Source of the DNA: a virus
Virus record (IMG/VR): IMGVR_UViG_3300045988_104973
Length of the DNA: 13,203 nt
Reading direction: 5' to 3' (one strand)
Of this stretch, positions 1,103-13,020 are shown piece after piece. The notes below the pieces were generated by a model. That model was not told the origin of the DNA, searched no databases, and saw only the letters and a list, made by a program, of their open reading frames with translations. Both the position numbers and the translations under genes were made by a program. Position 1 is the first letter of the stretch, and the number at the start of each line of letters is the position of its first letter.

Positions 1103-3136
1103 ATGATAACAGATGTATATGATTTTGACTATTCGATTTTTAAAAAAGTAGGAAATGTGAAAAGAAAAAAAGGTTCAAGAAATAAGAAAAACTATAAAAA
1201 TCTGGTTTGCGCTTTTGATATCGAGACGAGCCGTATCAAAGAAATTGAACAGTCGGTCATGTACATCTGGCAGTTTCAAGTTGACGAAAAAGTTACTGTG
1301 ATAGGGAGAACATGGAGAGAGTTTGACTACTTCATGAGAGCGATAGCAGATGATCTGGAAGACATGGATTACATCGTAGTATATGTCCATAACCTTTCCT
1401 TCGAGTTCCAGTTTCTTTCGGGAATCTATCCTTTTTCAAAGGAAGAGGTTTTTGCTTTGGACGAACGAAAAGTTTGCAAGTGTGAGATGTTTGAGCATTT
1501 TGAGTTTAGATGCTCCTATATTCAAACAAATATGTCCTTAGAAACATTTACAGATAAAATGAATGTCAAGCATAAGAAGCTTTCTGGTGACTTGGACTAT
1601 AATGTGGAGCGTTATTCATACACGCCGTTATCTGATGAAGAGTTGGCTTATTGTATTAACGATGTACAAGGTTTGGTAGAAGCGATTAAGACAGAAATGA
1701 AAAACGATGGTGACACCCTCTATACAATTCCGCTGACCTCAACCGGTTATGTTCGTCGTGATGTAAAAAGCGCACTTGAGGGCAACCGCTGGATTATGGG
1801 AATCCAGCCGGATTTCGATGTCTATCAAGTAGCAAGAGAGGCGTTCCGTGGCGGCAACACCCACGCAAATCGTTTCTATGCCGGATGGATTCTTGAGGGT
1901 GTCCATTCCGCCGACCGTTCATCAAGTTATCCGGGTGTTCAGTGCAACAGAGCTTATCCGGTCACCCGATTTCACAAGATTTCAAAACCCGTTCCCGATG
2001 CAGGTCAGATCATTGATCTAATGAAAAGAAGAGAAAAAGCAATTCTGATGCGTGTATCATTCGAGGGGGTTTACTTAAATGATTACTCATGGGGATGCCC
2101 GTATCTGGCAAAAGACAAGTGCAGAAGTGTAGTAAAAGGAGTGTATGACAACGGTAGGATATTAAGCGCAGAATATTTGGAGACATCTATCACGGATGTT
2201 GATTTAAGAATCATAGTCGAAGAGTATCACATTGATAAGATCATACCGATTGAAGTTTACACAGCTCGTTATGGAAAACTCCCTGCCGCCATGATTGAAA
2301 CCATCTGTCTCTATTACAAAAAGAAAACAGAGTTGAAGGACGTAGAAGGGCAGGAATATTTTTATATGAAAAGTAAAAATAAGCTTAACTCTATCTACGG
2401 TATGACAGCGCAAGACCCTGTCAAAGAGGCAATATTGTATAAAGATGAAAAATTTACAATTGATAGATCAAAGACGAAAAAAGAACTATTGGAAAAGTTC
2501 ATGAAAAGGGCGTTCATTCCATATACATGGGGTGTATGGTGTACCGCATGGGCACGGTATGAATTGGAACGGGGTATGCGTACGGTGACAGATCAAGGCG
2601 GTACGTTTATCTACTGTGACACCGATTCGATTAAGTACCTAGGAGATGTGGATTTTTCAGAATATAATAACGAAAAAATAAAGTTGTCGAAAGAGAACGG
2701 TGCGTGGGCTACTGACCCGCAAGGCAACAATCATTACATGGAAGTGTATGAACAGGAGAAAGACGCTGATCGTTTCATTACATGGGGAGCGAAAAAGTAC
2801 GCATACGAAGCTGACGGGAAATTAAAGATCACGATTGCAGGAGTACCGAAAAAAGCTGGTGCAGAAGAGTTAAAGAAGAAAGGCGGCCTGGTTGCATTAA
2901 AGCCCGGGTTTGTATTCAGCGATTGCGGAAAACTGGAAACGGTTTACAATGACAAGCCGGAGATAACAAAATATAAAAACAAAGACGGAAAAATAATTGA
3001 AATAACTAAAAACGTGGTGTTGCGTCCTACCACTTATGCAGTGGGCATTACAAAAGAATATGATGAAATTTTACTAGACGCTTTGCTGTACAATATATTA
3101 ATCAATATTTTAAAAGGAACAAAATTATTAGGTTGA
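1103..3136 (+). CDS. Family-B protein-primed DNA polymerase (phi29-type), 677 aa
   Basis: Exo I is FDIETS, Exo II is HNLSFEF and Exo III is YCINDVQG. Motif A is DRSSSYPG (DxxSxYP) and motif B is KNKLNSIYG (Kx3NSxYG). CTAWARY matches phi29 ITAWARY. Motif C is IYCDTDSI and KxY is KKY. Confidence 0.95.
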   Translation: MITDVYDFDYSIFKKVGNVKRKKGSRNKKNYKNLVCAFDIETSRIKEIEQSVMYIWQFQVDEKVTVIGRTWREFDYFMRAIADDLEDMDYIVVYVHNLSFEFQFLSGIYPFSKEEVFALDERKVCKCEMFEHFEFRCSYIQTNMSLETFTDKMNVKHKKLSGDLDYNVERYSYTPLSDEELAYCINDVQGLVEAIKTEMKNDGDTLYTIPLTSTGYVRRDVKSALEGNRWIMGIQPDFDVYQVAREAFRGGNTHANRFYAGWILEGVHSADRSSSYPGVQCNRAYPVTRFHKISKPVPDAGQIIDLMKRREKAILMRVSFEGVYLNDYSWGCPYLAKDKCRSVVKGVYDNGRILSAEYLETSITDVDLRIIVEEYHIDKIIPIEVYTARYGKLPAAMIETICLYYKKKTELKDVEGQEYFYMKSKNKLNSIYGMTAQDPVKEAILYKDEKFTIDRSKTKKELLEKFMKRAFIPYTWGVWCTAWARYELERGMRTVTDQGGTFIYCDTDSIKYLGDVDFSEYNNEKIKLSKENGAWATDPQGNNHYMEVYEQEKDADRFITWGAKKYAYEADGKLKITIAGVPKKAGAEELKKKGGLVALKPGFVFSDCGKLETVYNDKPEITKYKNKDGKIIEITKNVVLRPTTYAVGITKEYDEILLDALLYNILINILKGTKLLG

Positions 3137-3468: not shown

Positions 3469-3816
3469 ATGAAAATTATCAGAAGTAAAAATGAAAAGAT
3501 TACCGTAAAAGAGAAATATCTTATGTCAATGAATCCCGAGATTCGTAGAATGAGAGATGCCGAGGGGATGAATGTTCCGGTGATTAACTGGATGCTTTAT
3601 TCCGACACAGACAAAGATGGAAATGAACAGACCCTTCTTTCTATCCTGTCTGAGGAGAATGTTGCATACGCAACAAACAGCCGGACTTTCATCGAAGCAT
3701 TTTCCGTACTCTGTGACATGTTCGCAGACAGCGGGGAAGAGATTACCGCCATTAAGGTAATCAGTGGACAGTCAAAAGCAGGACGGCACTTTATCACTTG
3801 CGCCTATGCTGAGTAA
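3469..3816 (+). CDS. Hypothetical protein, 115 aa; candidate abundant replication accessory (SSB/DBP-like) protein by position only
   Basis: RBS GGGAG is present and the start lies 2 nt after the upstream stop. It sits in the replication module and is followed by an intrinsic terminator. The functional guess is positional inference from phi29 p5/p6, not sequence homology. Confidence 0.7.
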   Translation: MKIIRSKNEKITVKEKYLMSMNPEIRRMRDAEGMNVPVINWMLYSDTDKDGNEQTLLSILSEENVAYATNSRTFIEAFSVLCDMFADSGEEITAIKVISGQSKAGRHFITCAYAE

Positions 3817-3867: not shown

Positions 3868-3897
3868 AAAGCCCCGTTCCGTTATCGGGGCTTTTTT
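3868..3897 (+). terminator. Rho-independent terminator ending the early/replication transcription unit
   Basis: AAAGCCCCG (3868-3876), a 9-nt loop, then CGGGGCTTT with a 6-T run (3892-3897). The core stem has six G:C pairs. Confidence 0.8.
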
Positions 3898-3912: not shown

Positions 3913-4953
3913 ATGAAGGAAAAGAACATTTATGACCGTAATGGCTTTATCAATATACCGGCTATTTACAACATACAAGTACCGTTCATTTTTATTGTAG
4001 GTGGTCGAGGAACTGGAAAAACGTATGGAGTGTGTAAATTTGCGATTGAGAAAAAGATCAAGTTCGCTCTGATGAGACGAACACAAACACAAGCTGATCT
4101 GATTTCCAAACCGGAATTTTCACCGCTCAAACCTGTGCTTGGAGATATGAACCGGATGTTTAAGGCGGTTTCTTTGACAAAACAGAACAGTGCTTTTTAT
4201 GAAACAGACATGGAAGGAACGATTATTTCACCCGAACCGTTCTGTTATTCACTCGCACTGTCAACCATTTCAAACATGCGTGGTTTTGATGCTAGTGATA
4301 TCTCCCTCATCTTCTATGATGAGTTTATCGCAGAAGCGCACGAACGACCACTGAAAAATGAAGCAGAAGCTTTCTTTAACTGTTATGAAACAATTAACCG
4401 TAACCGTGAATTGAAAGGGATTCCACCTGTCAAAGTGATCTGTGCCGCTAATAGCAATAATATGGCGAATGAGTTGTTCATATCACTGGGACTGGTGCTG
4501 AGAGCGGAAAAAATGTATCAGAACGGTTCATCTATCTGGATTGACAAAGAAAGGGGTCTGGCACTAATCATCTGTCAAGACAGTCCTGTTTCCGAAGCAA
4601 AGGAAAAAACAGCACTTTACAATCTGGTGCCAAGGGATTCTGACTTTTATCAGATGTCATTAAAGAACGTATTCACGAAAGACAGAGCGGATAACATCGG
4701 TGCCAGAAACATCAAGGAATTCAAGCCGTTAGTCCATGCCGGCGAAATGTATATCTATCGGCATAAATCACGTCAGGAGTACTATGCGACCCCCTTCAAG
4801 TCAGGCGTATTTAAAGATAACTATACGATGAGCGAAAATGATAAAGTACGCTTTCGCTTAAAATATCGCTATCTATGGATCGCATTTCTATCACGTTCGC
4901 TATTTTTTGAAAATTATATCATACAGGTTCTTTTTACAAAATGTTTTACTTAA
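3913..4953 (+). CDS. DNA encapsidation (packaging) ATPase, phi29 gp16-like, 346 aa
   Basis: Walker A is GGRGTGKTYG and Walker B-like is LIFYDEF. The size matches gp16-type packaging ATPases. The start is moved to ATG 3913 (RBS AGAGGTGA, 3901-3908) because the ORF-track start at 3856 would run through the terminator hairpin. Confidence 0.88.
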   Translation: MKEKNIYDRNGFINIPAIYNIQVPFIFIVGGRGTGKTYGVCKFAIEKKIKFALMRRTQTQADLISKPEFSPLKPVLGDMNRMFKAVSLTKQNSAFYETDMEGTIISPEPFCYSLALSTISNMRGFDASDISLIFYDEFIAEAHERPLKNEAEAFFNCYETINRNRELKGIPPVKVICAANSNNMANELFISLGLVLRAEKMYQNGSSIWIDKERGLALIICQDSPVSEAKEKTALYNLVPRDSDFYQMSLKNVFTKDRADNIGARNIKEFKPLVHAGEMYIYRHKSRQEYYATPFKSGVFKDNYTMSENDKVRFRLKYRYLWIAFLSRSLFFENYIIQVLFTKCFT

Positions 4954-4956
4954 CTA

Positions 4957-4985
4957 TTGTCTAAAAACGGGATGTGTGTTATAAT
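4957..4985 (+). promoter_or_regulatory. Strong sigma-A promoter with extended -10, directly after the ATPase stop
   Basis: TTGTCT (4957-4962), a 17-nt spacer, then TATAAT (4980-4985), with TG at 4977-4978 giving TGnTATAAT. Confidence 0.75.
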
Positions 4986-4991
4986 CAGAAG

Positions 4992-5095
4992 TGAAAAGGA
5001 TGCGTAGAAACCAATCCCGGAAGGATGCGCACGTTCTAGGTTTCAGGACGGGAATCCTTTTTCAACAGGCGGTATATACAACCGCCTGTTTTATT
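4992..5095 (+). ncRNA. Candidate ~100-nt structured non-coding RNA or late-operon leader
   Basis: It is bounded by promoter 4957-4985 and a terminator hairpin at 5064-5095, and no ORF with a usable RBS is present. Complementary segments visible by eye are 4993-5001 with 5054-5063, 5007-5012 with 5039-5044, and 5015-5019 with 5049-5053. A 9-nt direct repeat AAGGATGCG occurs at 4996 and 5021. Confidence 0.45.
5064..5095 (+). terminator. Rho-independent terminator between the late promoter and the late genes
   Basis: AACAGGCGG (5064-5072), an 8-9-nt loop, then CCGCCTGTT (5082-5090), running into TTTTATT (5089-5095). Confidence 0.75.
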
Positions 5096-5123
5096 AAACA
5101 AACCGGGAAAGAAAGAGGTGGCT

Positions 5124-5321
5124 ATGGACGCAAACGCAATCATGACTATGGTGCAGACGTTAGGATTTCCAATCGTTTGCTGTGGGGCACTCTTTTGGAG
5201 AATGATGAAAGAGTCCGACAATCACAAAGTGGAAATGGAAAAAGTCACGGATGCGCTGAACAACAACACACAGGCACTCATCCGATTGGAAGAATCATTG
5301 AAAGGAGAAAAAGAAAAATGA
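5124..5321 (+). CDS. Small membrane protein, YvrJ-like (65 aa); possible holin-type or lysis-timing protein
   Basis: RBS AAGAGG is at 5113-5118. There is one hydrophobic segment (TLGFPIVCCGALFW) followed by a charged helical tail. The GFPI motif and overall layout recall the YvrJ family. Its stop overlaps the next start (ATGA at 5318-5321). Confidence 0.7.
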   Translation: MDANAIMTMVQTLGFPIVCCGALFWRMMKESDNHKVEMEKVTDALNNNTQALIRLEESLKGEKEK

Positions 5322-5698
5322 AACAGGAAGACATTGTAGCATTAGCAAGAGCCGGATTCACAAGGGAGCAGATTGTTGCGCTTGCAGGTTTACAGCAGAC
5401 AGCACCGATTCAGCAGAGCGTTCCGGTTCAGCAGACACCGCCGGTTCAGCAGACCGTTCCGGTTCAGCAGACCGCCCAGGGTCAGCAGACAGCACCGGTT
5501 CAGCAGACAGCACCGGTTCAGCAGACCGTTCCGGTTCAGCAGAGCGAATCATCCGGTGATCCGGTTCTGGATGCCCTTCTGGGACTGCGAGATGACATGA
5601 AAAAACAGGCGTTGCTGTTTTCCTCACAGCCTGCAAACCAGACAGAAACCACGAATGACATTTTAGCATCCATTATCAACCCGAAAGGAGAAAAATAA
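5318..5698 (+). CDS. Putative scaffolding protein with QQTxPV hexapeptide repeats, 126 aa
   Basis: It is translationally coupled on both sides (ATGA upstream, TAATG downstream) and lies immediately upstream of the capsid gene. It is small and acidic/Gln-rich with a helical N-terminus (DIVALARAGFTREQIVAL). The ORF-track version starting at 4991 is rejected. Confidence 0.55.
   Translation: MKQEDIVALARAGFTREQIVALAGLQQTAPIQQSVPVQQTPPVQQTVPVQQTAQGQQTAPVQQTAPVQQTVPVQQSESSGDPVLDALLGLRDDMKKQALLFSSQPANQTETTNDILASIINPKGEK
5393..5536 (+). repeat. In-frame tandem repeat, 8 x 18 bp plus a partial ninth unit
   Basis: Units begin every 18 nt from 5393 (CAGCAGACAGCACCGGTT-like) and encode QQT(A/V/P)P(V/I). 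Units 6 and 7 are identical, as are units 4 and 8. Confidence 0.95.
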
Positions 5699-6903
5699 TG
5701 CCGAGTGATTTAACTTTTAATCAGCTTTCTACCGTGTTGACAGACATTGTAGCACAGGCTACTGGGCAGAAAGCATTAGCACCGCTTAACACTGCATCCT
5801 TTATTACTGTCGCGAAAAAAGGATTAGAAGCTGGATATGATCCTCTATCCACAGCAATTTCACAGGTACTATCCAGAACACTCTTTTCTGTAAGACCCTA
5901 TAGCAGAAAGTTCAAAGGTTTGAACGTGTCAAACCAGCGCTACGGAAGCCACGTTCGTAAACTGCTGACTATTGACAAACCGTTCGAGGATGATGACCGG
6001 TTAAAGCTGGTAGACGGGGAGTCTATTGATCAGTACCAAGTGAACAAACCGAAAGTTTTACAGACAAACTTCTACGGGGCAAACGTCTATCAGAAGTCAG
6101 TGACGATCTACAAAGATCAGTTAGACTGTGCTTTCTCCTCACCGGATGAGTTTGCATCATTCATTTCTATGATTCTGCAGAACTCATCTGATATGATCGA
6201 GCAGGCACACGAGGAAACAGCCCGTGCAACAATCGGGAATTTGATCGCTGGTATTTACGCCATAGAAACAGATAATAGCAAAACAGGCACGGCAAAAGCA
6301 ACAGGACAGAAACGCGCGGTTAATCTCCTCGCACTTTACAATCAGGAAAGTGGAAAATCTCTGACCGTTGCTGATGTGTTCAAACCAGAAAATTTTGAAA
6401 GTTTCATTAAGTTTACATTTTCGTCAATCAATACAATTGCTGATTTAATGACAGACAGAAATAGCCTGTTTTGTTCACAGCTCACAGACTATACGATTCT
6501 GCGCCACACACCGAAAAACCGAATGAAGTTCTATCTCAACTCAAATCTGGTGAACAAAATCAACTCCGAAGTCTATTCTAGTGTGTTCAATCCGGATTTT
6601 CTGAAACTGGTTGACTTTGAAACTGTTAATTACTGGCAGTCTCCACTCTCGTCAGCCGCAGTGAAAGCTAACGTCAGTGTTTTGAAAAATGATGGTACGT
6701 TAGTTGATATGCCCGATATTTCCATGGCAAGTGTGCTTGGCGTTTTGTTTGACGAAGAAGCCGCTGGCTACACAACCATGAATCAGTGGTCAAAACCTAG
6801 CCCTTTTAACGCGCGTGGCGGATATTACAATCAGTTCTGGCACTTTACGGATCGCTACTGGAACGACTTTACAGAAAATGCGGTTGTCTTCTATCTCGAA
6901 TAA
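5698..6903 (+). CDS. Putative major capsid protein, 401 aa
   Basis: It sits directly after the scaffold gene and before the tail/portal genes, and its size is typical of small-podovirus capsid proteins. The call rests on synteny; no diagnostic motif was read. Confidence 0.6.
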   Translation: MPSDLTFNQLSTVLTDIVAQATGQKALAPLNTASFITVAKKGLEAGYDPLSTAISQVLSRTLFSVRPYSRKFKGLNVSNQRYGSHVRKLLTIDKPFEDDDRLKLVDGESIDQYQVNKPKVLQTNFYGANVYQKSVTIYKDQLDCAFSSPDEFASFISMILQNSSDMIEQAHEETARATIGNLIAGIYAIETDNSKTGTAKATGQKRAVNLLALYNQESGKSLTVADVFKPENFESFIKFTFSSINTIADLMTDRNSLFCSQLTDYTILRHTPKNRMKFYLNSNLVNKINSEVYSSVFNPDFLKLVDFETVNYWQSPLSSAAVKANVSVLKNDGTLVDMPDISMASVLGVLFDEEAAGYTTMNQWSKPSPFNARGGYYNQFWHFTDRYWNDFTENAVVFYLE

Positions 6904-6936
6904 TGTTCCGCATGGACATAACAGAAAGGAGTGAAC

Positions 6937-8337
6937 ATGGCATTATCAGTTACTCTTTACACATTCTCCAAACGGCTCAACAGTACAAAAAATCCCCCCG
7001 CTGAGGGGGGATTCACTGTACAAGCCGTGCTAAAAGACAACACCTCTATCATCAGACCGGAACTGGAAGTGGTTGAAAATGTGACTGCTTATAACTATGC
7101 CTTTATCCCCGCTTTCTCCCGGTATTATTTCGTTCAAGATGTGACATGGGAAAAAGGTATATGGCGTGTTGTACTCTCAGAGGACGTTCTAGCAACCTAC
7201 AAAACGGTGATAGGTGACACAACCGCCTATATCCTGCGGTGCGCGACGTTCCAAGACCCTACTATTACAGATTTACTCTATCCGGCAACTACCGAAATTG
7301 ACACGCAAAAAACAGAATTTACCCTAGAGGATGGATGGATTGAGAATCCGACCGTGGCAAACGGCTATTATGTGGTGGGCATTGTGAATAATCTGGACAC
7401 TGCCTATGGAGCAGTTGCCTACTATGTTATGACCGGAAAAGAAATGGCAGATTTCCGTGCATACATGTTAGGAGATATCCAATCATGGGATCAGATCACT
7501 GACTTTTCCGGTGACGTTGCGAAAGCATTCATTGACCCATTTCAATATGTGGTTTCATGTATGTGGTTTCCAACGGGCGTTCCGGTTGATCCAGTCAAAA
7601 AGACAATTGCCTTTGGTTACTGGAAATCAAACCTTGAAGCGTCCGTATTATCACAGACCACACGGAACTATCCGTTTTCTTTAGCTAGACCAGACCGAAC
7701 CAACAACAAAGATATTACTTATCTCTACCGGACACCGTGGGCAAACTACTATCTGTACTTGCAACCGTGGGGTGCAGTTCAATTGGATGCATCAAAAATC
7801 GGGAAAACCGGAGTTAGTTGTAACATCACCTACGATTTTGTGAGCGGAAAAGCAATCTTAACTGTTACATCGAAATTAACAAATGATGTGCTGTACAATG
7901 GTGAAGCACAGGTAGGTGTGCAGATGCAGTTATCGAACGTAGGTTTGAATCTGAAAAGCGCTACGGGTAGTGTAAGCGGGTTGATCGAAGCGGCGAAAAA
8001 CTCCCTCGGCGGTGTAATCGGTAGCATCGGTCAGAAGTTCAGCGCAAGTAGCATCGCATCCAGCGTGTTTGCTAGTAATGCGTCCGTACAAAGCACAGGC
8101 ACGAATAGCGGCATGGCGGCAGATTCGCTCGGCGGAAAAGCCGCTCTCTTCGCAAACTACTATGAATCAGTTATGTTTGACGTAGCAGATAACGGAAAAC
8201 CGCTCTGCCAGAACCGGAAAATATCGGATTGCTCGGGCTATGTAAAAGTGGAAAACGGAGCAATCAATTTTTCCGCTACAGAACCGGAAAAGCAAATAGT
8301 AAAAGAAAATTTAGAAGGAGGATTTTATTATGAGTGA
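6937..8337 (+). CDS. Tail knob / distal tail tube protein (phi29 gp9-like), 466 aa
   Basis: RBS AAAGGAG is at 6925-6931 and the start is taken as ATG 6937. The N-terminal block (YNYAFIPAFSRYYFVQDV...LSEDVLATY) resembles my recollection of the gp9 N-domain. A Gly/Ser/Ala-rich hydrophobic loop (SGLIEAAKNSLGGVIGSIG...SSVFAS) parallels the gp9 membrane-active loop. The C-terminal tail is of the EGGFYYE type. Confidence 0.6.
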   Translation: MALSVTLYTFSKRLNSTKNPPAEGGFTVQAVLKDNTSIIRPELEVVENVTAYNYAFIPAFSRYYFVQDVTWEKGIWRVVLSEDVLATYKTVIGDTTAYILRCATFQDPTITDLLYPATTEIDTQKTEFTLEDGWIENPTVANGYYVVGIVNNLDTAYGAVAYYVMTGKEMADFRAYMLGDIQSWDQITDFSGDVAKAFIDPFQYVVSCMWFPTGVPVDPVKKTIAFGYWKSNLEASVLSQTTRNYPFSLARPDRTNNKDITYLYRTPWANYYLYLQPWGAVQLDASKIGKTGVSCNITYDFVSGKAILTVTSKLTNDVLYNGEAQVGVQMQLSNVGLNLKSATGSVSGLIEAAKNSLGGVIGSIGQKFSASSIASSVFASNASVQSTGTNSGMAADSLGGKAALFANYYESVMFDVADNGKPLCQNRKISDCSGYVKVENGAINFSATEPEKQIVKENLEGGFYYE

Positions 8338-8509
8338 GATTAAAATGTATTCACTGCCGACAACCGTGGCAGTAGCTATTCTTGTAATCGGTGGCAACTA
8401 TGGGAACGGGTCAGACCGCATCAAGCGGTTAAAAGAAGATGGCTTCGACCCGGTCAAAGTGCAGAAATGTGTAAATGACATTCTTCCTATAATCAAGAGG
8501 TATCGTTAA
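8330..8509 (+). CDS. 59-aa stand-alone CW_7 (Cpl-7-type) cell-wall-binding repeat protein
   Basis: Hand-translated as MSEIKMYSLPTTVAVAILVIGGNYGNGSDRIKRLKEDGFDPVKVQKCVNDILPIIKRYR; it is absent from the ORF track. RBS AAGGAGG at 8315-8321 lies 8 nt upstream. The pattern VIxGxYGNGxxRxxxLxxxGxDxxxVQxxVNxIL matches the CW_7 repeat as I recall it. The stop overlaps the lysin start (TAATG). Confidence 0.6.
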   Translation: MSEIKMYSLPTTVAVAILVIGGNYGNGSDRIKRLKEDGFDPVKVQKCVNDILPIIKRYR

Positions 8510-9591
8510 TGGCGGGGAATATTCAGGTGTCTTACCAGTGGGCAATTGACACCTGCAACCGAAAAAATGTAGGCTATTCACAAACTTATCGAAATCAGCA
8601 AACAGTGAACGGGATAACTTATTATGATTGCAGTTCTTTTATCTGGTATGCGCTTCTAGCATCCGGTTTTGATGTAGTAGCCGCCCATGGTGGGCAAAGC
8701 TGGCCTTTTACCACCTATGACATGGTTGGTGTGTTGGATGCTTTAGGTTTCAACCGTGTCCCGGTTGGCGATCCATGGAAACCCGGTGACATTCTGTTGC
8801 GTAACAACCAGTACGGTAACCATACGGAAATGGTCTATGATGGGCGGCGGACGATGGGTGCGCACAGTTCTACCTATCCCCCGGGGGAACAGGTGTCAAT
8901 TAACACCGGAGACAGCAATCCGGCTACCTGGGACACTTGCCACCGTTTTGGCGGTGGTGCAAGTGGGGCAAAAGGAAGCAGTGCTTATGTAGTAGCCTCT
9001 ATTTGCGGTAATTTCTGGCAGGAATCCGGCATCAATCCCGGCATCTGGCAGGACTTGCGCGAATCCACGTTTACAGATCTGTTAGTCGGATTCGGTCTTG
9101 GTCAGTGGACAAATACGGAAGGTGATACGCATGGACGTCTTTACAAATTACATGAATGGTTGATGAACAACGGCTATGCGGATGATGATGGTGTCGGACA
9201 GCTGAACTATCTGATTCACGAAAATGTGTGGTATAGCACGGAAGAAGCATCCGCCTATAAGAATCTGACTGAATTTTTGACCAGTGACAGTACAGATATT
9301 GCGGCGTTAACCCACGCATGGAACATCGGCTGGGAAGGGATTCATGACAGCTCGTGGGATGCCCGTGTGCAGTATGCACAGAACTGTTATGACTATATCA
9401 TCGCTCATGCGAATGATACATCTATCACGACCTGGGCAAAAGGTAACCGTTACCTTAGCGAATCGGAGCGTTATAACAACGCAGTGTTAATTTATCGTTT
9501 CCTCAGCACGGGGGCAACACCCGGAACAGGCACGACATTTCTGATTGCGGTTCTCAGTAAAAAGAAACGGAGGGACAGAAAGAATGTATAA
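8509..9591 (+). CDS. Two-domain peptidoglycan hydrolase: N-terminal NlpC/P60-type cysteine peptidase plus C-terminal phage tail lysozyme-like domain, 360 aa
   Basis: The N-domain has YDCSSFIWYAL (catalytic Cys), WKPGDILL and GNHTEMVY (His). The C-domain has ICGNFWQESGINP and GFGLGQWT, typical of the Phage_lysozyme2-type fold with a catalytic Glu. No wall-binding domain is visible in this polypeptide. Confidence 0.85.
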   Translation: MAGNIQVSYQWAIDTCNRKNVGYSQTYRNQQTVNGITYYDCSSFIWYALLASGFDVVAAHGGQSWPFTTYDMVGVLDALGFNRVPVGDPWKPGDILLRNNQYGNHTEMVYDGRRTMGAHSSTYPPGEQVSINTGDSNPATWDTCHRFGGGASGAKGSSAYVVASICGNFWQESGINPGIWQDLRESTFTDLLVGFGLGQWTNTEGDTHGRLYKLHEWLMNNGYADDDGVGQLNYLIHENVWYSTEEASAYKNLTEFLTSDSTDIAALTHAWNIGWEGIHDSSWDARVQYAQNCYDYIIAHANDTSITTWAKGNRYLSESERYNNAVLIYRFLSTGATPGTGTTFLIAVLSKKKRRDRKNV

Positions 9592-10498
9592 TGGCATACC
9601 CTTTTCAGCGGACTACATCAACGCGGCAAACTCGGTGATTTCACCGAGTACCGTGCATTGCCGGAATACCAGCTTATCTCTTTATTTTCAGCGGTATCTC
9701 TTACAGAAAGCGATGAGCGTATTCAAATGGGAGATGCCGCCGGAATGGTCGAAGAACTACACCCTTTATACGCTGTATTGTTGGGGCTTTTTCGCTGTAG
9801 TCAACACAGACAGGTACGGAGTGATCCCACAGGCCTGCGGACTGCGCGGATATGATGTATTCTATCAGCCAACTAACGCAATCATCACGAACCCACTCCT
9901 ATCCGGGACACTGGAACCAAGAATTGGTTTGCAGTGCGAACTGGTTCGGTTACAGCCGGATTACGGCGGCATCATGGATATTGTTACCTATTATGCGGAT
10001 ATGCTGGCTCTCTGCGCTGAATCCGTAGGAATGAATCTGGTCAACAGTAAACTTGCTTATGTCTTTGCCGCCGAGAACAAAGCTATGGCGGAAACATTCA
10101 AAAAGCTGTATGATCAGATTGCGGCGGGAAATGCAGCTGCTATCATTGACAAACAGTTATTCCGGGAAGACGGAAAGGCGAGCTGGCAGATGTTCAACCA
10201 GAACGTTGGTCAGAACTACATTGCAGATCAAGTGCTTTCGGATATGCGGAAAATCGAAGCTATGTTCTGCACGGATGTGGGCATCCCGAACGCCAACACG
10301 GACAAAAAGGAACGGTTAATCACAGATGAGGTGAACGCTAATAAGGTGGAGACACGTTCAAAGTGTGACCTCTGGTTGGAAGAATTAAAAGAATCCTGCA
10401 AGAAAGTGCGAGAGATGTTCGACATCAAACTGGATGTGGACTGGCGTTACAAAGGAGGTGTAGAAGATGGCAACGTTGAGCCTGTTAGGACTGTATAA
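9584..10498 (+). CDS. Portal / upper collar connector (phi29 gp10-like), 304 aa
   Basis: FKWEMPPEW, GIPNANTDKKERLITDEVNAN and the C-terminal DVDWRY align with the phi29 connector segments FEWENLPP, GIKNANLEKKERMVTDEV and VKFRY. The start is taken as ATG 9584 (RBS GGAGGGA, 9570-9576). Confidence 0.9.
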   Translation: MYNGIPFSADYINAANSVISPSTVHCRNTSLSLYFQRYLLQKAMSVFKWEMPPEWSKNYTLYTLYCWGFFAVVNTDRYGVIPQACGLRGYDVFYQPTNAIITNPLLSGTLEPRIGLQCELVRLQPDYGGIMDIVTYYADMLALCAESVGMNLVNSKLAYVFAAENKAMAETFKKLYDQIAAGNAAAIIDKQLFREDGKASWQMFNQNVGQNYIADQVLSDMRKIEAMFCTDVGIPNANTDKKERLITDEVNANKVETRSKCDLWLEELKESCKKVREMFDIKLDVDWRYKGGVEDGNVEPVRTV

Positions 10499-11306
10499 TT
10501 ATGATGAATCCCTTTTGGATGGACTGATCGAAAGTTTACCAAACAGATATGGGATCCCATCTGGCTATGCAGATTCCTACTACACGGATGTTATCATTGA
10601 TCCTCAGACCGTAGTGGAAAATCTGTTGGTGGAATGCGCCGAGTTTGAAATCTTGTATTCAGACTTTAACGCATTAAAGCGCATCATCAAAATTTGGTCT
10701 GCAAAAGAGAAACTGATGTGGCAGAAAATGTATAACACCATCTGCTATAAATACAACCCCATTTGGAACAAAGACGGAAAATCTGTCTGGACGGAACGGC
10801 AGAGCGCAACCGGAAAGAAGACAGAAACGGAAAAAGGATCAAAAACCACCAACGCCAATGGAACAACCAATGATGAATATACATCAACTAGCAACACAAC
10901 AAATAAAACAACCGGAACGGGTACAAATACCCGTACAGGAAGTGATGAGACAACCGGAAAAGTCAGTGCCTATGACAGCACAGATTTTCAGAACCGGGAG
11001 AAAACAAACAGCACAGCAAGCGAAAACAACAGCACCGAAAGCACAGAAGATTTCACTGGCAACGGAAAAGTAACAAATTCCGGAACGAAAACGATTGTGA
11101 ATACAGGTGATGAAACGAATAATGTTTCACGTGAAACATCTGACAACAACACGGGTGAAACAACGCATGAACAGACAGAAACCGGAAACATCGGAATCAC
11201 GTTAACTCAGAATATGATTACTGCGGAACGTGAAATCGCCATGTTCAATATCATTGATTTTATTATCAATGATTTCAAAGAACGTTTCTGTTTACTGATT
11301 TATTGA
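10467..11306 (+). CDS. Putative lower collar protein (gp11 position), 279 aa, with a Thr/Asn/Gly/Glu-rich central region
   Basis: It lies immediately after the portal as in phi29, with RBS AAAGGAGG at 10451-10458 and a 32-nt overlap with the portal gene. The N- and C-terminal regions are ordered-looking and flank a low-complexity core (aa 111-240). The call rests on synteny. Confidence 0.5.
   Translation: MATLSLLGLYNYDESLLDGLIESLPNRYGIPSGYADSYYTDVIIDPQTVVENLLVECAEFEILYSDFNALKRIIKIWSAKEKLMWQKMYNTICYKYNPIWNKDGKSVWTERQSATGKKTETEKGSKTTNANGTTNDEYTSTSNTTNKTTGTGTNTRTGSDETTGKVSAYDSTDFQNREKTNSTASENNSTESTEDFTGNGKVTNSGTKTIVNTGDETNNVSRETSDNNTGETTHEQTETGNIGITLTQNMITAEREIAMFNIIDFIINDFKERFCLLIY
11122..11139. 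repeat. 18-bp perfect palindrome ATGTTTCACGTGAAACAT, copy 2, inside the lower collar gene
   Basis: It is identical to 471-488 and lies within codons for NVSRETS. Confidence 0.85.
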
Positions 11307-11320
11307 AAGGAGAATGTGAA

Positions 11321-12760
11321 ATGGGATTATTTGATCAGTTTCCGTATACTAATTTTCACGAATTAAACCTTGACTGGCTTATTGAACGTATGAAACACTG
11401 TCTGTCTGTAGTCGATGGTGTCAATGCAAACATTGATGCCACTGTTGAACGCGAAATTGAAAAACTGGTAGAAACTGGTGAATTTGATCAGTTTCTGTAT
11501 AACATGTTCAAAGAACACACGGATAACGCAGTGTTATGGGGCGCAGACCCCACTGGAGTTGACGATTCTTCTGTAGTCATCAATAAAATGTTAAGCACCA
11601 TAGGTAGTTGCTATCTGCCGAATGGTATTTATCGCATTGACGAATCAATCGTTATTCCATCAGATGCTCGGCTGTATGGACAGAGTACGGACGGCGTGAT
11701 CTTAAAAGCATATCGAAATGGGCCCGTGGCTGTTATTAAGTCCGCAACTTATGACTTGTATCACAACACTGACACGATCAACGGCGACACCTCTTTTGAA
11801 ATTAAGGACTTGACCGTTGACGGAAACGGCCGTGGTATGATCGGTATCGCGCTTTACGGATATAAATATCACATTGCAAATGTTGACATTCGCAAATGTA
11901 CCGACGGGTTCTACAGCGAATGGGGTAGTTCGAACGGGTTCGCGGAGAACGGTAATGTTATGCACTCAGTAATCGAAAATGTAACGATCGGGAACTGTAC
12001 GTCACATGTTGCACAGTTTTTTGGACCCCATGACAGCTATATTGACAAACTAGTCGGGCATAACTGTGACTCAGGTCTGTACATTGTAAAAAAAGCAAGT
12101 AACGCGAACAGAGCGAACGGAACGGTTCTTTCCAACAGTCATATTTTCTCCATTCAGAAAACGGGAATTTATATCACAGATTACTGCTATTTAGATAATG
12201 TTGTGTCTGAATCCAACGGCGGTGACGGAATCTATGCGGAGTCTGAGTGTAAAATGTATAATTGCACGATATTTAACAACGGCGGAAACGGTCTGACTAT
12301 TGCCGCCAACATATCACAGGCGATTGTTGAAAACGCTTCTTGTTATCAGAACAAGGGAAAAGATATTGTTATCGGAGCGAATGTGAAAAACAGTATCATC
12401 AACGCTCAGACATTCAGCGCGGATTCTGGAAAAATTGCTGTGAATAGCGGTTTGCTCACAAAAGAAGCTAACAGTTATAACAATCACATCCACATCGTTA
12501 GTGCCAGTCCGTTTCATGGAATTGATTATGCACCGATGACACTTAGTACGGTGGAAATACCGGAAACTAGTCCTTATGTGAACACCACGGGGCGGTCTGC
12601 AAATGTAATTGTATACGGTTCGAATGACTGTAAACTTTTGTTTACTGGCTCGACTGTTAACATGAAAGCGGAGCAGTGTTATCCATTACCATGCGGGGCA
12701 TCAATTACGTGGACTACTAAACCTTCTAGCATATTATTGATGTATAATCCTATTAACTAG
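11321..12760 (+). CDS. Tail spike / pre-neck appendage-like receptor-binding protein with right-handed beta-helix (pectate-lyase-like) domain, 479 aa
   Basis: The N-terminal FPYTNFHELNLDWLI motif is common to Firmicute phage appendage/fiber N-termini. WGADPTGVDDSSVVINKML is the typical start of a Pectate_lyase_3-type beta-helix. Repetitive (N/D)G..I.. turns follow. The start is taken as ATG 11321 (RBS AAAGGAGA). Confidence 0.75.
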   Translation: MGLFDQFPYTNFHELNLDWLIERMKHCLSVVDGVNANIDATVEREIEKLVETGEFDQFLYNMFKEHTDNAVLWGADPTGVDDSSVVINKMLSTIGSCYLPNGIYRIDESIVIPSDARLYGQSTDGVILKAYRNGPVAVIKSATYDLYHNTDTINGDTSFEIKDLTVDGNGRGMIGIALYGYKYHIANVDIRKCTDGFYSEWGSSNGFAENGNVMHSVIENVTIGNCTSHVAQFFGPHDSYIDKLVGHNCDSGLYIVKKASNANRANGTVLSNSHIFSIQKTGIYITDYCYLDNVVSESNGGDGIYAESECKMYNCTIFNNGGNGLTIAANISQAIVENASCYQNKGKDIVIGANVKNSIINAQTFSADSGKIAVNSGLLTKEANSYNNHIHIVSASPFHGIDYAPMTLSTVEIPETSPYVNTTGRSANVIVYGSNDCKLLFTGSTVNMKAEQCYPLPCGASITWTTKPSSILLMYNPIN

Positions 12761-12761
12761 T

Positions 12762-12785
12762 AAGAGGGGCATAAGCCCCTCTTTT
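12762..12785. terminator. Bidirectional intrinsic terminator between the convergent late operon and the right-end gene
   Basis: AAGAGGGGC (12762-12770), loop ATAA, then GCCCCTCTT (12775-12783), a 9-bp stem. T residues follow on the + strand and the A-rich 5' flank supplies Us for the - strand transcript. Confidence 0.75.
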
Positions 12786-12987
12786 AAATTAAGCAGATGA
12801 TTTTATCGCTGTTTTTGTGGAAGAAGATTTTGAAATAATCTACTTCCATTTTCATATATGCGGGATTTTTTTCAAAACACCCACTCACTGTATCTTGATA
12901 GATACTCTTATTATTCATGTCTGTTATTACAACTAGCGAACCGTTTTTCAGATTGCCACATGCTAATAATAAGTCCCGTAATGTCAT
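12784..12987 (-). CDS. Small right-end early protein (67 aa), paralog of 200-382
   Basis: The start is taken at MTLRDLL (ATG 12987-12985), with RBS AAAGGAGA 5 nt upstream. It is the only leftward gene and is driven by the right ITR promoter. It shares the N-terminal and EVD(W/Y)F blocks with the left-end protein. Confidence 0.7.
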   Translation of the reverse strand: MTLRDLLLACGNLKNGSLVVITDMNNKSIYQDTVSGCFEKNPAYMKMEVDYFKIFFHKNSDKIICLI

Positions 12988-13002
12988 AATATTCTCCTTT
13001 CT

Positions 13003-13020
13003 GTGTTTCATGTGAAACAT
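13003..13020. repeat. Variant copy (16/18) of the 18-bp palindrome, between the right ITR promoter and the RBS of the right-end gene
   Basis: Read on the - strand it is ATGTTTCACATGAAACAC followed by AGAAAGGAGA. The 28-nt module 12993-13020 matches 471-498 at 26/28 positions in inverted orientation. Confidence 0.8.

Follow-up and report, generated by a model that had tools for sequence, protein, structure and literature searches.

The window, that is, the whole stretch of 13,203 nucleotides analysed here (IMG/VR record IMGVR_UViG_3300045988_104973), holds the genome of a phi29-like gut phage of ~13 kb. Inverted terminal repeats of 179 bp bound the window, which is thus most likely a complete linear genome. 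The phage has genes for a Gp16-type ATPase and a phi29-type connector (GP10), and a Pfam/PHROGs scan of its open reading frames also found a phi29-type capsid protein, an SSB and a DNA_pol_B_2-family polymerase; the Pfam matches are PF05894, PF05352, PF25622, PF17427 and PF03175. DNA_pol_B_2 is the organellar/viral type B polymerase family, and protein-primed polymerases are included in it. From the polymerase family and the terminal repeats, we infer that the phage probably replicates by protein priming; no terminal protein was identified in the phage. The packaging ATPase gene (positions 3913–4953, + strand) encodes 346 residues from the ATG at 3913 and matches PF05894 (E = 4e-15). Its homologues are 340–347 residues long, and the Gp16-type ATPase family has more than 2700 members. 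On the same strand, the first late gene (5124–5321) encodes a holin-like protein (phrog_4898 holin, E = 8e-9), and its SD sequence GAGGUG (5115–5120) and ATG (5124) together span 5115–5126. The products of the late mRNA are holin, scaffold, capsid, tail and connector. Between the ATPase and holin genes lies a gap of 170 nt (4954–5123), the sole internal non-coding stretch big enough for an RNA such as that described below. We interpret the gap as a small-RNA gene with a structured product, located at the start of the late transcription unit.

A sigma-70-type extended −10 promoter is located at 4957–4985 (+ strand), with the −35 element TTGTCT at 4957–4962, TG at 4977–4978 and the −10 element TATAAT at 4980–4985. 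This promoter, already recognised in a preliminary description of the locus, scores 10/12 (TTGTCT-17-TATAAT with the upstream TG) and ranks fourth among the sites in the window. Its −10 and TG are unchanged in an alignment of 20 close relatives, and a −10-like hexamer is found 0–7 nt upstream of the first RNA helix (P1) in most members of the RNA family. Judging from the sequence, transcription would start near 4991–4993. A degenerate remnant of an operator palindrome lies at 4941–4955 (+ strand), where most close relatives have ATGTTTCACGTGAAACAT abutting the −35 element. Elsewhere in the window, the palindrome is intact at 471–488 and 11122–11139, and a one-mismatch copy is present at 13003–13020. 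The transcript had been described as lacking any open reading frame with a usable ribosome-binding site (RBS). An open frame does exist at 4991–5698, as the upstream extension of the frame of the 5318–5698 gene, but relatives differ there by one-base indels, so that it is unlikely to be coding; a coding role was dismissed on these indels and on the overlap with the holin gene.

The RNA is followed by a strong intrinsic terminator (5064–5095, + strand), resembling a 'domain II' hairpin, with a 10-bp stem (5064–5073/5081–5090), a loop (5074–5080) and the U tract UUUUAUU. The hairpin, also reported before, appears in the MFE fold and in an RNAalifold prediction based on an unbiased MAFFT alignment of 15 clade members. 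Among these members the stem is kept, with A-U to G·U changes, and the loop is variable. A simple terminator scanner did not list it, probably because A-U pairs counted as stem cut the T tail below the threshold. Transcripts arriving from the ATPase gene are also stopped by this terminator. A second, equally good terminator is found at 3869–3897, directly upstream of the ATPase RBS, which suggests constitutive leaky attenuation; leaky terminators thus seem to serve this genome as a general means of setting dosage. In the window clade, the late genes must be reached by reading through the terminator at 5064–5095. A promoter scan of 5100–12760 found no further strong + strand promoter, in agreement with the earlier statement that the late operon has no other recognisable one.

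This arrangement had also been read as a device of the lambda PR'-6S RNA-tR' type, in which a constitutive promoter yields a short RNA that ends at a terminator, and expression of the late operon needs a factor that makes RNA polymerase terminator-resistant. Such a factor would be a Q- or N-like phage protein, perhaps binding a conserved pentaloop (CNGAA) hairpin of the RNA as N binds boxB. The window clade shares with the lambda PR'-6S RNA-tR'/Q system the order of promoter, short terminated transcript and late genes expressed by read-through; the lack of another strong promoter for these genes agrees with this reading, and the pentaloop hairpin could bind a protein. However, a dedicated hairpin terminator after the RNA, although present in the window clade, is absent from many clades, an equally good terminator precedes the ATPase RBS, and neither Pfam nor PHROGs revealed a Q- or N-like protein among the open reading frames scanned. 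Inspection of the sequence found no complementary segment that could act as an antiterminator. Moreover, lambda 6S RNA has no conserved functional fold, and a terminated leader needs no covarying three-way junction with a bulge-loop pairing, as described in the next paragraphs. We consider this device improbable; what stands of it is the weak form, a late unit reached by read-through in this clade.

The RNA from 4992 to 5098 folds with −36.3 kcal/mol (z = −3.58), and only one of 200 shuffled sequences is as stable. A structured RNA of ~70 nt (4993–5062, + strand) forms a three-way junction composed of P1, P2, a 5' bulge (J2/3), P3 and P4. P1 (4993–5001 paired with 5054–5062), the equivalent of the A helix of the phi29 packaging RNA (pRNA), is seen in the MFE fold, in RNAalifold and in the structural alignment, where 100% of its cells are paired and all eight scored pairs have double changes. 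G-C to G·U changes occur among relatives as well, and the closing helix that had been proposed from the window alone is real. P2 (C helix equivalent) pairs GCGU (5002–5005) with GCGC (5027–5030), shows compensatory C-G to U-A changes within the clade, and resumes directly after P3, with 0 nt between them on the 3' side. On the 5' side, the bulge J2/3, AGAAACCA (5006–5013), corresponds to the CE loop. P3 (5014–5026; E hairpin equivalent) reads AUCC[CGGAA]GGAU, with the stem at 5014–5017/5023–5026 and the loop at 5018–5022. A compensatory change (AUCU/AGAU) is found in the relative L039, and the CNGAA pentaloop is the most strongly conserved sequence in the RNA family. P4 (5032–5050; D hairpin equivalent) reads CGUUCU[AGGUUUC]AGGACG, and its stem (5032–5037/5045–5050) has C-G, U-A and U·G variants. 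RNAalifold of the unbiased window-clade alignment gives the same P1–P4 and terminator. Across the family the RNA is 67–81 nt long, P1 has 9–16 bp without a conserved bulge, and the junction nucleotides are poorly conserved. Helices P2 (5002–5005/5027–5030), P3 (5014–5017/5023–5026) and P4 (5032–5037/5045–5050) were missing from the preliminary description. Its pseudoknot-like pairing of TCCCG (5015–5019) with CGGGA (5049–5053) has to be abandoned: most close relatives have a C·A mismatch, distant ones have no equivalent, and the bases are part of P3 and P4/J4-1. The window does contain the 9-nt direct repeat AAGGATGCG; in relatives, however, the sequences are AAGGAAGTG versus AAGGATGCA, and the two-state fold built on the repeat is not conserved.

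The pairing of GAAACC (5007–5012) with GGUUUC (5039–5044) was correctly noticed as complementary but is not an ordinary helix; it joins the bulge J2/3 to the P4 loop. It covaries, with GAAACA/UGUUUC in relatives. Since a 5' bulge here meets a hairpin loop, the pairing is either a pseudoknot or an intermolecular contact. At least four contiguous base pairs can form between bulge and P4 loop in 39/39 unique combinations, and none of 20000 permutations reached the observed mean. There are 22 distinct bulge-loop duplexes in the first set and many more in those found afterwards. Covariation has no power to separate a cis from a trans bulge-loop pairing. P2 and P4 are both 4–6 bp long, and a cis contact, as in some riboswitch folds, therefore looks sterically possible. 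The length relations of P2 and P4 were tried as a criterion for cis versus trans and were rejected, as they vary too little to be informative.

The RNA recurs in well over 100 related contigs of 8–16 kb, with ATPase identity down to about 30%. A covariance model built from 32 sequences gives 73 matches among 79 sources (77 distinct stretches, as the window and L040 are each listed twice), and it finds the RNA in 18/38 pattern-derived loci and 33/79 MAG-derived loci. A hand-written descriptor matches 42/84 sources and nothing in 469 kb of shuffled sequence. In the structural alignment, 96.1% of cells are paired and 23/25 pairs have double changes. Every helix shows heavy covariation, with a score of 1.06 against 0.21 in shuffles (0/500 reach the observed value) and 0.09–0.17 with the partners slid. 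As G·U pairs are common and A·C pairs absent, the RNA is read from the + strand. Rfam searches of the window and five related genomes at permissive thresholds found no relevant match, including none to riboswitch or self-cleaving ribozyme classes. Two weak minus-strand matches at 5056–5219 (STnc50, E = 3.8; BASRCI337, E = 5.9) are far under the gathering scores and were discarded; the STnc50 alignment is anchored on the terminator hairpin. This RNA family is thus absent from Rfam, and it runs through a large clade of phages whose packaging ATPases are of the Gp16 type. A cultured member is Amedibacillus phage AD70P3, in which the RNA is located at about 6296–6367 on the minus strand of OP172639.

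In every relative examined, the RNA lies inside the late transcription unit, and in nearly all it comes first. L217 differs: its promoter is followed by the holin gene, then the RNA and then the next gene, so the RNA's position is not rigidly bound to the transcription start or the holin gene. The structural module is inverted in the L106 clade and in L217, where the RNA moves with the late genes and not with the ATPase gene. To look for free-standing copies, with their own promoter and terminator and no downstream gene, we scanned viral contigs for a 16-nt pattern and applied the covariance model to the matches. No such copy was found; all true matches are in phi29-like contigs of 8–16 kb, with a gene downstream. 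Pattern matches in larger contigs were treated as chance, since they have no covariance-model match at E ≤ 0.01. These data also bear on another account, in which the locus comprises a late promoter, a 5' structure that stabilises the mRNA and the terminator ending the ATPase operon upstream, the RNA itself having no dedicated function. Structured 5' ends can protect mRNAs, and the terminator does end transcripts from the ATPase gene. However, it is located downstream of the promoter and not upstream of it, and a stabiliser needs neither four covarying helices nor a covarying tertiary pairing and an invariant loop across phages whose ATPases are ~30% identical. We regard this account as very improbable.

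A further, long-range pairing (P5) connects the RNA with the late leader. In the window, CCGGGA at 5103–5108 (+ strand), 6 nt upstream of the SD sequence, is complementary to U5015–G5020 in the P3 5' strand and loop. Several other clades share with the window clade a site 0–15 nt upstream of the SD sequence that is complementary to the P3 5' strand/loop, for example CGGACGGAA/UUCCGUCCG, GUCCGGAA/UUCCGGAC, UCUCGGA/UCCGAGA and CCUCGGA/UCCGAGG. P5 covaries in several clades, with many G·U and no A·C pairs; at least 5 bp form in 65% of members compared with 13% of shuffles, and 0/5000 permutations reach the observed mean. This points to a cis relationship of the RNA with the late mRNA in some clades. 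Roughly one third of the first set lack P5, and among the more distant members it is not significant, with a self mean of 3.85 and a non-self mean of 3.83. As it is absent from the more distant clades, P5 was rejected as a universal feature. Clades without it still have the fold, the CNGAA loop and the pairing of bulge and P4 loop; thus, P5 is not the core function.

P5 is one reason to consider that the RNA is a cis-acting (or cis-encoded, trans-acting) regulator of the late operon, a compact pseudoknotted three-way junction with its bulge-loop helix formed in cis. The CNGAA hairpin would then bind a phage or host factor or pair with the leader upstream of the first late RBS, controlling the translation, stability or read-through of the late mRNA. 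The logic would be like that of the P1/P7 C4 RNA and the P4 CI RNA, which are excised from the leader of the very operon under their control and, as with P5, are leader-encoded small RNAs with a loop complementary to a site near a downstream RBS on the same transcript. The location of the RNA within the late transcription unit in all contexts seen is consistent with this, and operator-like palindromes flank the unit in different clades, which makes it a regulatory hotspot. Candidate structured RNAs upstream of Podovirus_gp16 genes have also been listed as possibly cis-regulatory (Fremin et al. 2023, PMC10690425). On the other hand, the target pairing is absent from many clades, including about a third of the first set, and the holin gene is upstream of the RNA in L217. 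The poorly conserved junctions are unlike those of ligand-binding riboswitches, P1 is long and GC-rich in most clades and thus not a switchable helix, and the sequence offers no antiterminator alternative. There is no match to C4 or to any other Rfam family, the core fold is unrelated to those of the C4 and CI RNAs, and, unlike in the C4/CI systems, the phages here are lytic and have no immunity function. A regulator of this kind is possible, and we would not call it probable.

We prefer the explanation that the late promoter gives rise to a miniature packaging RNA and that read-through of the terminator yields the late mRNA, and we see about an even chance that it is correct. Host RNA polymerase would initiate at about 4991–4993 from the extended −10 promoter and produce the ~70-nt three-way-junction RNA and then the hairpin terminator. 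A fraction of the transcripts, expected to be large, would stop at 5064–5095 to yield a discrete ~100-nt species, and the polymerases that read through would make the late mRNA (holin, scaffold, capsid, tail and connector). The released RNA would act as a miniature prohead (packaging) RNA. Its bulge-loop pairing may be intermolecular and build up a connector-bound ring, the CNGAA loop, which is conserved, may touch the prohead, and P1, with or without the 3' hairpin, may dock the ATPase. More speculatively, in the window clade and several others, the P5 site (5103–5108) in the read-through mRNA could mask the RNA module or tune the translation of the first late gene. A fuller version, put forward only tentatively, is a ~70-nt minimal pRNA that is ancestral or widespread in phi29-like phages beyond Bacillus and forms its ring by bulge-loop kissing. 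It would also head the late operon and be set free by termination or by processing, with P5 as an off-switch or translational regulator that unfolds the prohead-binding hairpin.

The pRNA-analogue reading, which had been suggested from the neighbourhood of the gp16-like gene, has become much more credible, because the conserved three-way junction, helix order, bulge and loop positions match those of the Rfam pRNA family (RF00044) and because phi29-type genes accompany them. What does not match is RF00044 homology, size and the basic connector N-terminus. The RF00044 covariance model has no match in the window at E ≤ 10 and none in five related loci at E ≤ 1, and the same model recovers the Nf pRNA with 47 bits (E = 4.9e-9) as a positive control. 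A generic descriptor also covering the Bacillus pRNAs was dropped, as their interrupted C and A helices need a looser, less specific grammar. The candidate lacks sequence and covariance-model homology to pRNA, is half the size, and occurs with a connector that has no basic N-terminus.

To our knowledge, pRNA is the sole RNA component recognised in any viral DNA-packaging motor, and it is a workhorse of RNA nanotechnology. Packaging RNA has so far been established only in Bacillus phi29-like phages, and the architecture of the present family mirrors pRNA at half size. If this is a half-size pRNA, an RNA-dependent motor would be a general feature of the phi29-like lineage, given a family conserved in very many gut and rumen phages. 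It would also define a minimal architecture for such an RNA and offer a new scaffold, a three-way junction that assembles itself and comes with dozens of naturally orthogonal loop pairs. The cultured phage AD70P3 makes the question directly testable. If the RNA is a cis-regulator instead, it would still be a new, very widespread class of structured RNA controlling the late genes of gut phages. In current reviews, pRNA is a peculiarity of phi29 and its relatives among the Bacillus phages (PMC11476376, PMC5066667), and the one proposal outside Bacillus that we found mentioned concerns Streptococcus phage Cp-1 (PMC6266182). We inspected the Cp-1 non-coding regions for a similar RNA and found no obvious member.

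The phage of the window and phi29 have in common a small genome, inverted terminal repeats, a DNA_pol_B_2-family polymerase, the Gp16 ATPase and the GP10 connector. The RF00044 consensus comprises the A helix, the C helix, a 9-nt 5' bulge, the E hairpin, the C 3' strand with no 3' bulge, the D hairpin and the A 3' strand. Thus, phi29 pRNA and the window RNA agree in the order of helices, in the side of the bulge and in the positions of the two complementary segments, and in both the 5' and 3' ends form a closing helix, which is P1 here. In both families, the bulge covaries with the D (P4) loop, to which it is complementary; the bases that pair are at the 3' ends of bulge and loop, and structure is kept far more than sequence. 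The window pair includes AACC/GGUU, which is the CE/D loop pair of phi29. A 3' hairpin follows domain I in phi29 (domain II; Hill 2016, PMC5066667) and likewise in the window clade. The differences are also clear. The RNA is shorter, as had been pointed out, at about 70 nt compared with about 117 nt for domain I of phi29 pRNA, whose prohead-binding region is only bases 22–84 or 40–91 (Hill 2016, PMC5066667). The C helix has about 10 bp in phi29 and 4–5 bp here, and the phi29 A helix has ~25 bp with a gp16-docking region, whereas P1 has 9–16 bp. Unpaired junction bases are located between P4 and P1 here and between C and D in phi29, and the invariant CNGAA pentaloop sets the present family apart from phi29 pRNA. 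While phi29 pRNA is a separate early gene at the genome end, the window RNA is embedded in the late operon, and its hairpin also pairs, in some clades, with the mRNA leader that follows it. As previously noticed, the connector N-terminus, MYNGIPFSADYINAANS (MYNGIPFSADY...), lacks the basic patch, which is RNA-binding in phi29.

We found a comparable RNA in cultured Clostridium innocuum phages (CI55P1 group), an RNA of ~110 nt before the ATPase gene that is un-annotated in the GenBank record. It has a long A helix, a C helix, the bulge AUACCA, an E hairpin and the D loop CUGGUAA, with compensatory changes among 11 relatives. The helix order and the bulge-loop complementarity (UACCA/UGGUA) are as in the window RNA, and so are a promoter directly upstream, a U-rich tail and then the RBS of the gene that opens the morphogenesis cluster. 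In contrast to the window RNA, it is larger: its A helix is long, its C helix has 9 bp, and its E loop has 6 nt and no CNGAA. It is found upstream rather than downstream of the ATPase gene. The CI55P1 RNA is intermediate in size between phi29 pRNA and the window RNA.

We found a real, strongly conserved structured RNA, absent from Rfam, between the packaging ATPase gene and the late genes of the window. The 107 nucleotides from 4992 fold at -36.3 kcal/mol (z = -3.6), and a ~70-nt RNA of one shared architecture lies directly 3' of a TATAAT box in relatives at only 45-50% ATPase identity. A closing helix, P1 (4993-5001/5054-5062), encloses P2 (5002-5005/5027-5030), the 5'-side bulge J2/3 (5006-5013), P3 (5014-5017/5023-5026) with the loop CGGAA (5018-5022), P4 (5032-5037/5045-5050) with the loop AGGUUUC (5038-5044), and J4/1 (5051-5053). 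P1 is the closing helix of the preliminary description. The GAAACC/GGUUUC pairing noted there is also real, but it connects the J2/3 bulge with the P4 loop instead of forming an ordinary helix. Two further proposals, a third helix (TCCCG/CGGGA) and a direct-repeat switch, lack conservation among relatives and were dropped.

The expected covariation across related phages is present. When 49 distinct sequences are aligned by structure, pairing holds in 96.1% of cells and 23 of the 25 pairs have changes on both sides, counts that are biased towards the structure because the alignment was fitted to it. The covariation score is 1.06, compared with 0.21 in shuffles (0/500 reach 1.06) and 0.09-0.17 with slid partners. 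The same helices were obtained from an independent RNAalifold run and from single-sequence MFE folds. In an alignment-free test, each of the 39 unique bulge/hairpin combinations contains four or more contiguous complementary bases, with 22 different duplexes among them, and the observed mean was reached by none of 20000 partner permutations. G.U pairs are frequent in the helices and A.C pairs are absent; therefore, the functional strand is the + strand RNA.

A covariance model made from 32 sequences gave 73 matches in 79 sources (77 distinct DNA stretches, the window and the related locus L040 each being entered twice), and matched 18 of the 38 loci of a pattern scan and 33 of 79 loci from gut and rumen MAG bins. 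Our own structure descriptor matched 42/84 sources and had no hit across 469 kb of shuffled sequence. Its matches extend to ATPases of ~30% identity and include the cultured Amedibacillus phage AD70P3, which may thus offer an experimental system. In AD70P3 (OP172639), the RNA lies at about 6296-6367 on the minus strand, in the 123-nt gap after the packaging ATPase gene, with the P3 loop CCGAA and the bulge-loop pair UAUCC/GGAUA. In L244 (about 3550-3700), a distant relative from a Methanobrevibacter MAG bin, two hairpins with CGGAA loops follow the ATPase gene, and the RNA region is organised differently.

Nearly all genomes keep the order ATPase gene, promoter, RNA and first late gene, sometimes with a small ORF between the ATPase gene and the promoter. 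In one clade (L106), the structural module is inverted and the RNA lies on the opposite strand to the ATPase gene, 8.4 kb away, still in the order promoter, RNA, holin. The rearranged locus L217 (1862-2340, minus strand) has the order promoter, holin, RNA and next gene, with the late module divergent from the ATPase gene; no promoter-like site is found immediately 5' of this RNA, and promoter-like hexamers overlap its 3' part. These layouts indicate that the RNA travels with the late transcription unit, and L217 that it need be neither at the 5' extreme of that unit nor upstream of the holin gene. Neither the pattern scan nor the covariance model found free-standing copies.

The extended -10 promoter assigned to the RNA (TTGTCT-17-TATAAT with an upstream TG, 4957-4985) stands up well: it ranks fourth among the promoter sites of the window, and its -10 and TG are identical in 20 close relatives. 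An 18-bp perfect palindrome, ATGTTTCACGTGAAACAT, adjoins its -35 in most close relatives, overlaps the promoter in six distant ones (L041, L059, L063, L065, L066 and L081) and occurs 3' of the ATPase gene in a 26%-identity relative (L264). In the window, it occupies regulatory positions, being found 5' of the RBS of ORF 506-1099 (471-488), beside a weak promoter within the tail region (11122-11139) and mirrored near the right end (13003-13020), with a degenerate copy at 4941-4955. This palindrome is probably the operator of a phage regulator, and the copy at the RNA promoter has been lost in the window phage. In one clade (L079, L082, L084, L090 and L062), a second, different 16-bp palindrome, TGTATAC-AA-GTATACA (with variants), separates the RNA from the SD, and may be an operator or roadblock uncoupling RNA synthesis from late-gene expression.

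The intrinsic terminator (5064-5095) is likewise confirmed, as a 10-bp GC-rich hairpin (5064-5073/5081-5090) followed by UUUUAUU; the hairpin also appears when RNAalifold is run on 15 clade members in an unbiased alignment. The window clade has an AU-rich P1 and then a dedicated terminator, whereas many other clades have a GC-rich P1 with a U-rich stretch directly 3'; a separate hairpin after the RNA reappears in a few unrelated clades. An equally strong terminator at 3869-3897 (AAAGCCCCG-loop-CGGGGCUUUUUU) lies immediately 5' of the ATPase RBS and ATG (3913), so that expression of the ATPase must depend on read-through, a layout shared with the late operon. With terminators in front of both, this genome seems to use them as a general means of setting dosage. 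The preliminary description also proposed a lambda-type leader whose late genes depend on suppressed termination; we found no Q- or N-like protein by Pfam or PHROGs among the ORFs scanned and, on inspecting the sequence, no antiterminator structure, and partial, factor-independent read-through is the simplest route to the late genes. An inverted repeat (AAGAGGGGC/GCCCCTCTT, 12762-12783) between the convergent tail gene (end 12760) and right-end gene (12784-13020, minus strand) probably serves as a bidirectional terminator at the end of the late operon.

The window clade, along with several further clades, shows complementarity between the P3 5' strand plus CNGAA loop and a site 0-15 nt 5' of the first late SD. 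In the window, this pairing, P5, joins U5015-G5020 with CCGGGA (5103-5108, + strand) 3' of the terminator, so that in the window clade it is possible solely in read-through transcripts; it excludes the P3 hairpin. P5 is also found at L049, L070, L077, L085, L104 and L106-L115, and it covaries (CGGACGGAA/UUCCGUCCG, GUCCGGAA/UUCCGGAC, UCUCGGA/UCCGAGA, CCUCGGA/UCCGAGG, GCCGGAA/UUCCGGC), using G.U and never A.C. The self mean is 5.5, which 0/5000 permutations reach, versus 4.6 for non-self, and at least 5 bp form in 65% of members versus 13% of shuffles. Roughly one third of the first set lacks P5, and in the more distant MAG set it fails to reach significance; this clade restriction makes it an accessory feature rather than the core function. 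Within mRNAs, P5 could mask the RNA module; alternatively, it could adjust how the first late gene is translated. For the RNA as a whole, cis-regulation of late expression is a possible, if rather doubtful, account, second to a packaging role; the two are not mutually exclusive.

A miniature packaging RNA is the most likely function, to which the comparisons below give roughly an even chance. The window, most likely a complete linear genome judging from perfect 179-bp inverted terminal repeats at both ends (each with an inward-reading consensus promoter), belongs to a phi29-like podophage of very small size, sampled from the gut; among deposited phages, only a human faecal contig matches it at the nucleotide level. 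Among its products are a DNA_pol_B_2-family polymerase (1103-3136; this organellar/viral type B family also covers protein-primed polymerases), a phi29-type SSB (3469-3816), a Gp16-type packaging ATPase (3913-4953), holin-like (5124-5321) and repeat-rich, scaffold-like (5318-5698) proteins, a major capsid protein of phi29 type (5698-6903), a connector of GP10 type (9584-10498), a lysin and a beta-helix tail protein. The scaffold-like gene carries eight tandem 18-nt repeats (5375-5572) encoding a Q/T/P/V-rich hexapeptide array.

The packaging RNA is favoured by the architecture, by the phage type, by the existence of an RNA of intermediate size and by the fact that the 13-kb genome offers such an RNA no other place. 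The Rfam search, which detected the annotated Bacillus phage Nf pRNA (E = 4.9e-9), gave nothing for the element up to E = 10, and the connector N-terminus, as first noted, has no basic residues, unlike that of phi29. The RNA is half the size of phi29 pRNA, lacks the conserved A-helix bulge, has its junction bases elsewhere and carries an invariant CNGAA pentaloop. The RF00044 consensus runs A helix, C helix, 9-nt 5'-only bulge, E hairpin, C 3' strand, three junction bases, D hairpin and A 3' strand; the new RNA shares the element order, the side of the bulge, the 0-1 nt from the E-like hairpin to the C-like 3' strand, and pairing bases at the 3' ends of the bulge and of the D-like loop. In phi29, this bulge-loop pairing is intermolecular and forms a ring on the prohead. 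The prohead-binding region of phi29 pRNA, in which domain I precedes a 3' domain II hairpin, comprises only bases 22-84 or 40-91 (PMC5066667), and the window RNA, with its short closing helix and 3' hairpin, is about the size of this core.

The cultured C. innocuum phage CI55P1 (NC_073482) and ten relatives have a ~110-nt pRNA-like RNA 5' of the ATPase gene, following the polymerase gene (4762-4870 in CI55P1; also L116-L128), which is intermediate in size between the window RNA and pRNA. It has a long A helix and a bulge AUACCA complementary to the D loop CUGGUAA, and its A, C and D helices show compensatory changes among relatives; it is unannotated in the record and had no match in Rfam. For Cp-1, a putative pRNA is mentioned that covariance models miss (PMC6266182). 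A large-scale survey lists unnamed, possibly cis-regulatory candidate RNAs near Podovirus_gp16 genes (PMC10690425), and the new family may be among them, though without a packaging-RNA interpretation there. In the reviews consulted, pRNA is presented as peculiar to the phi29-like phages of Bacillus (PMC11476376; PMC5066667).
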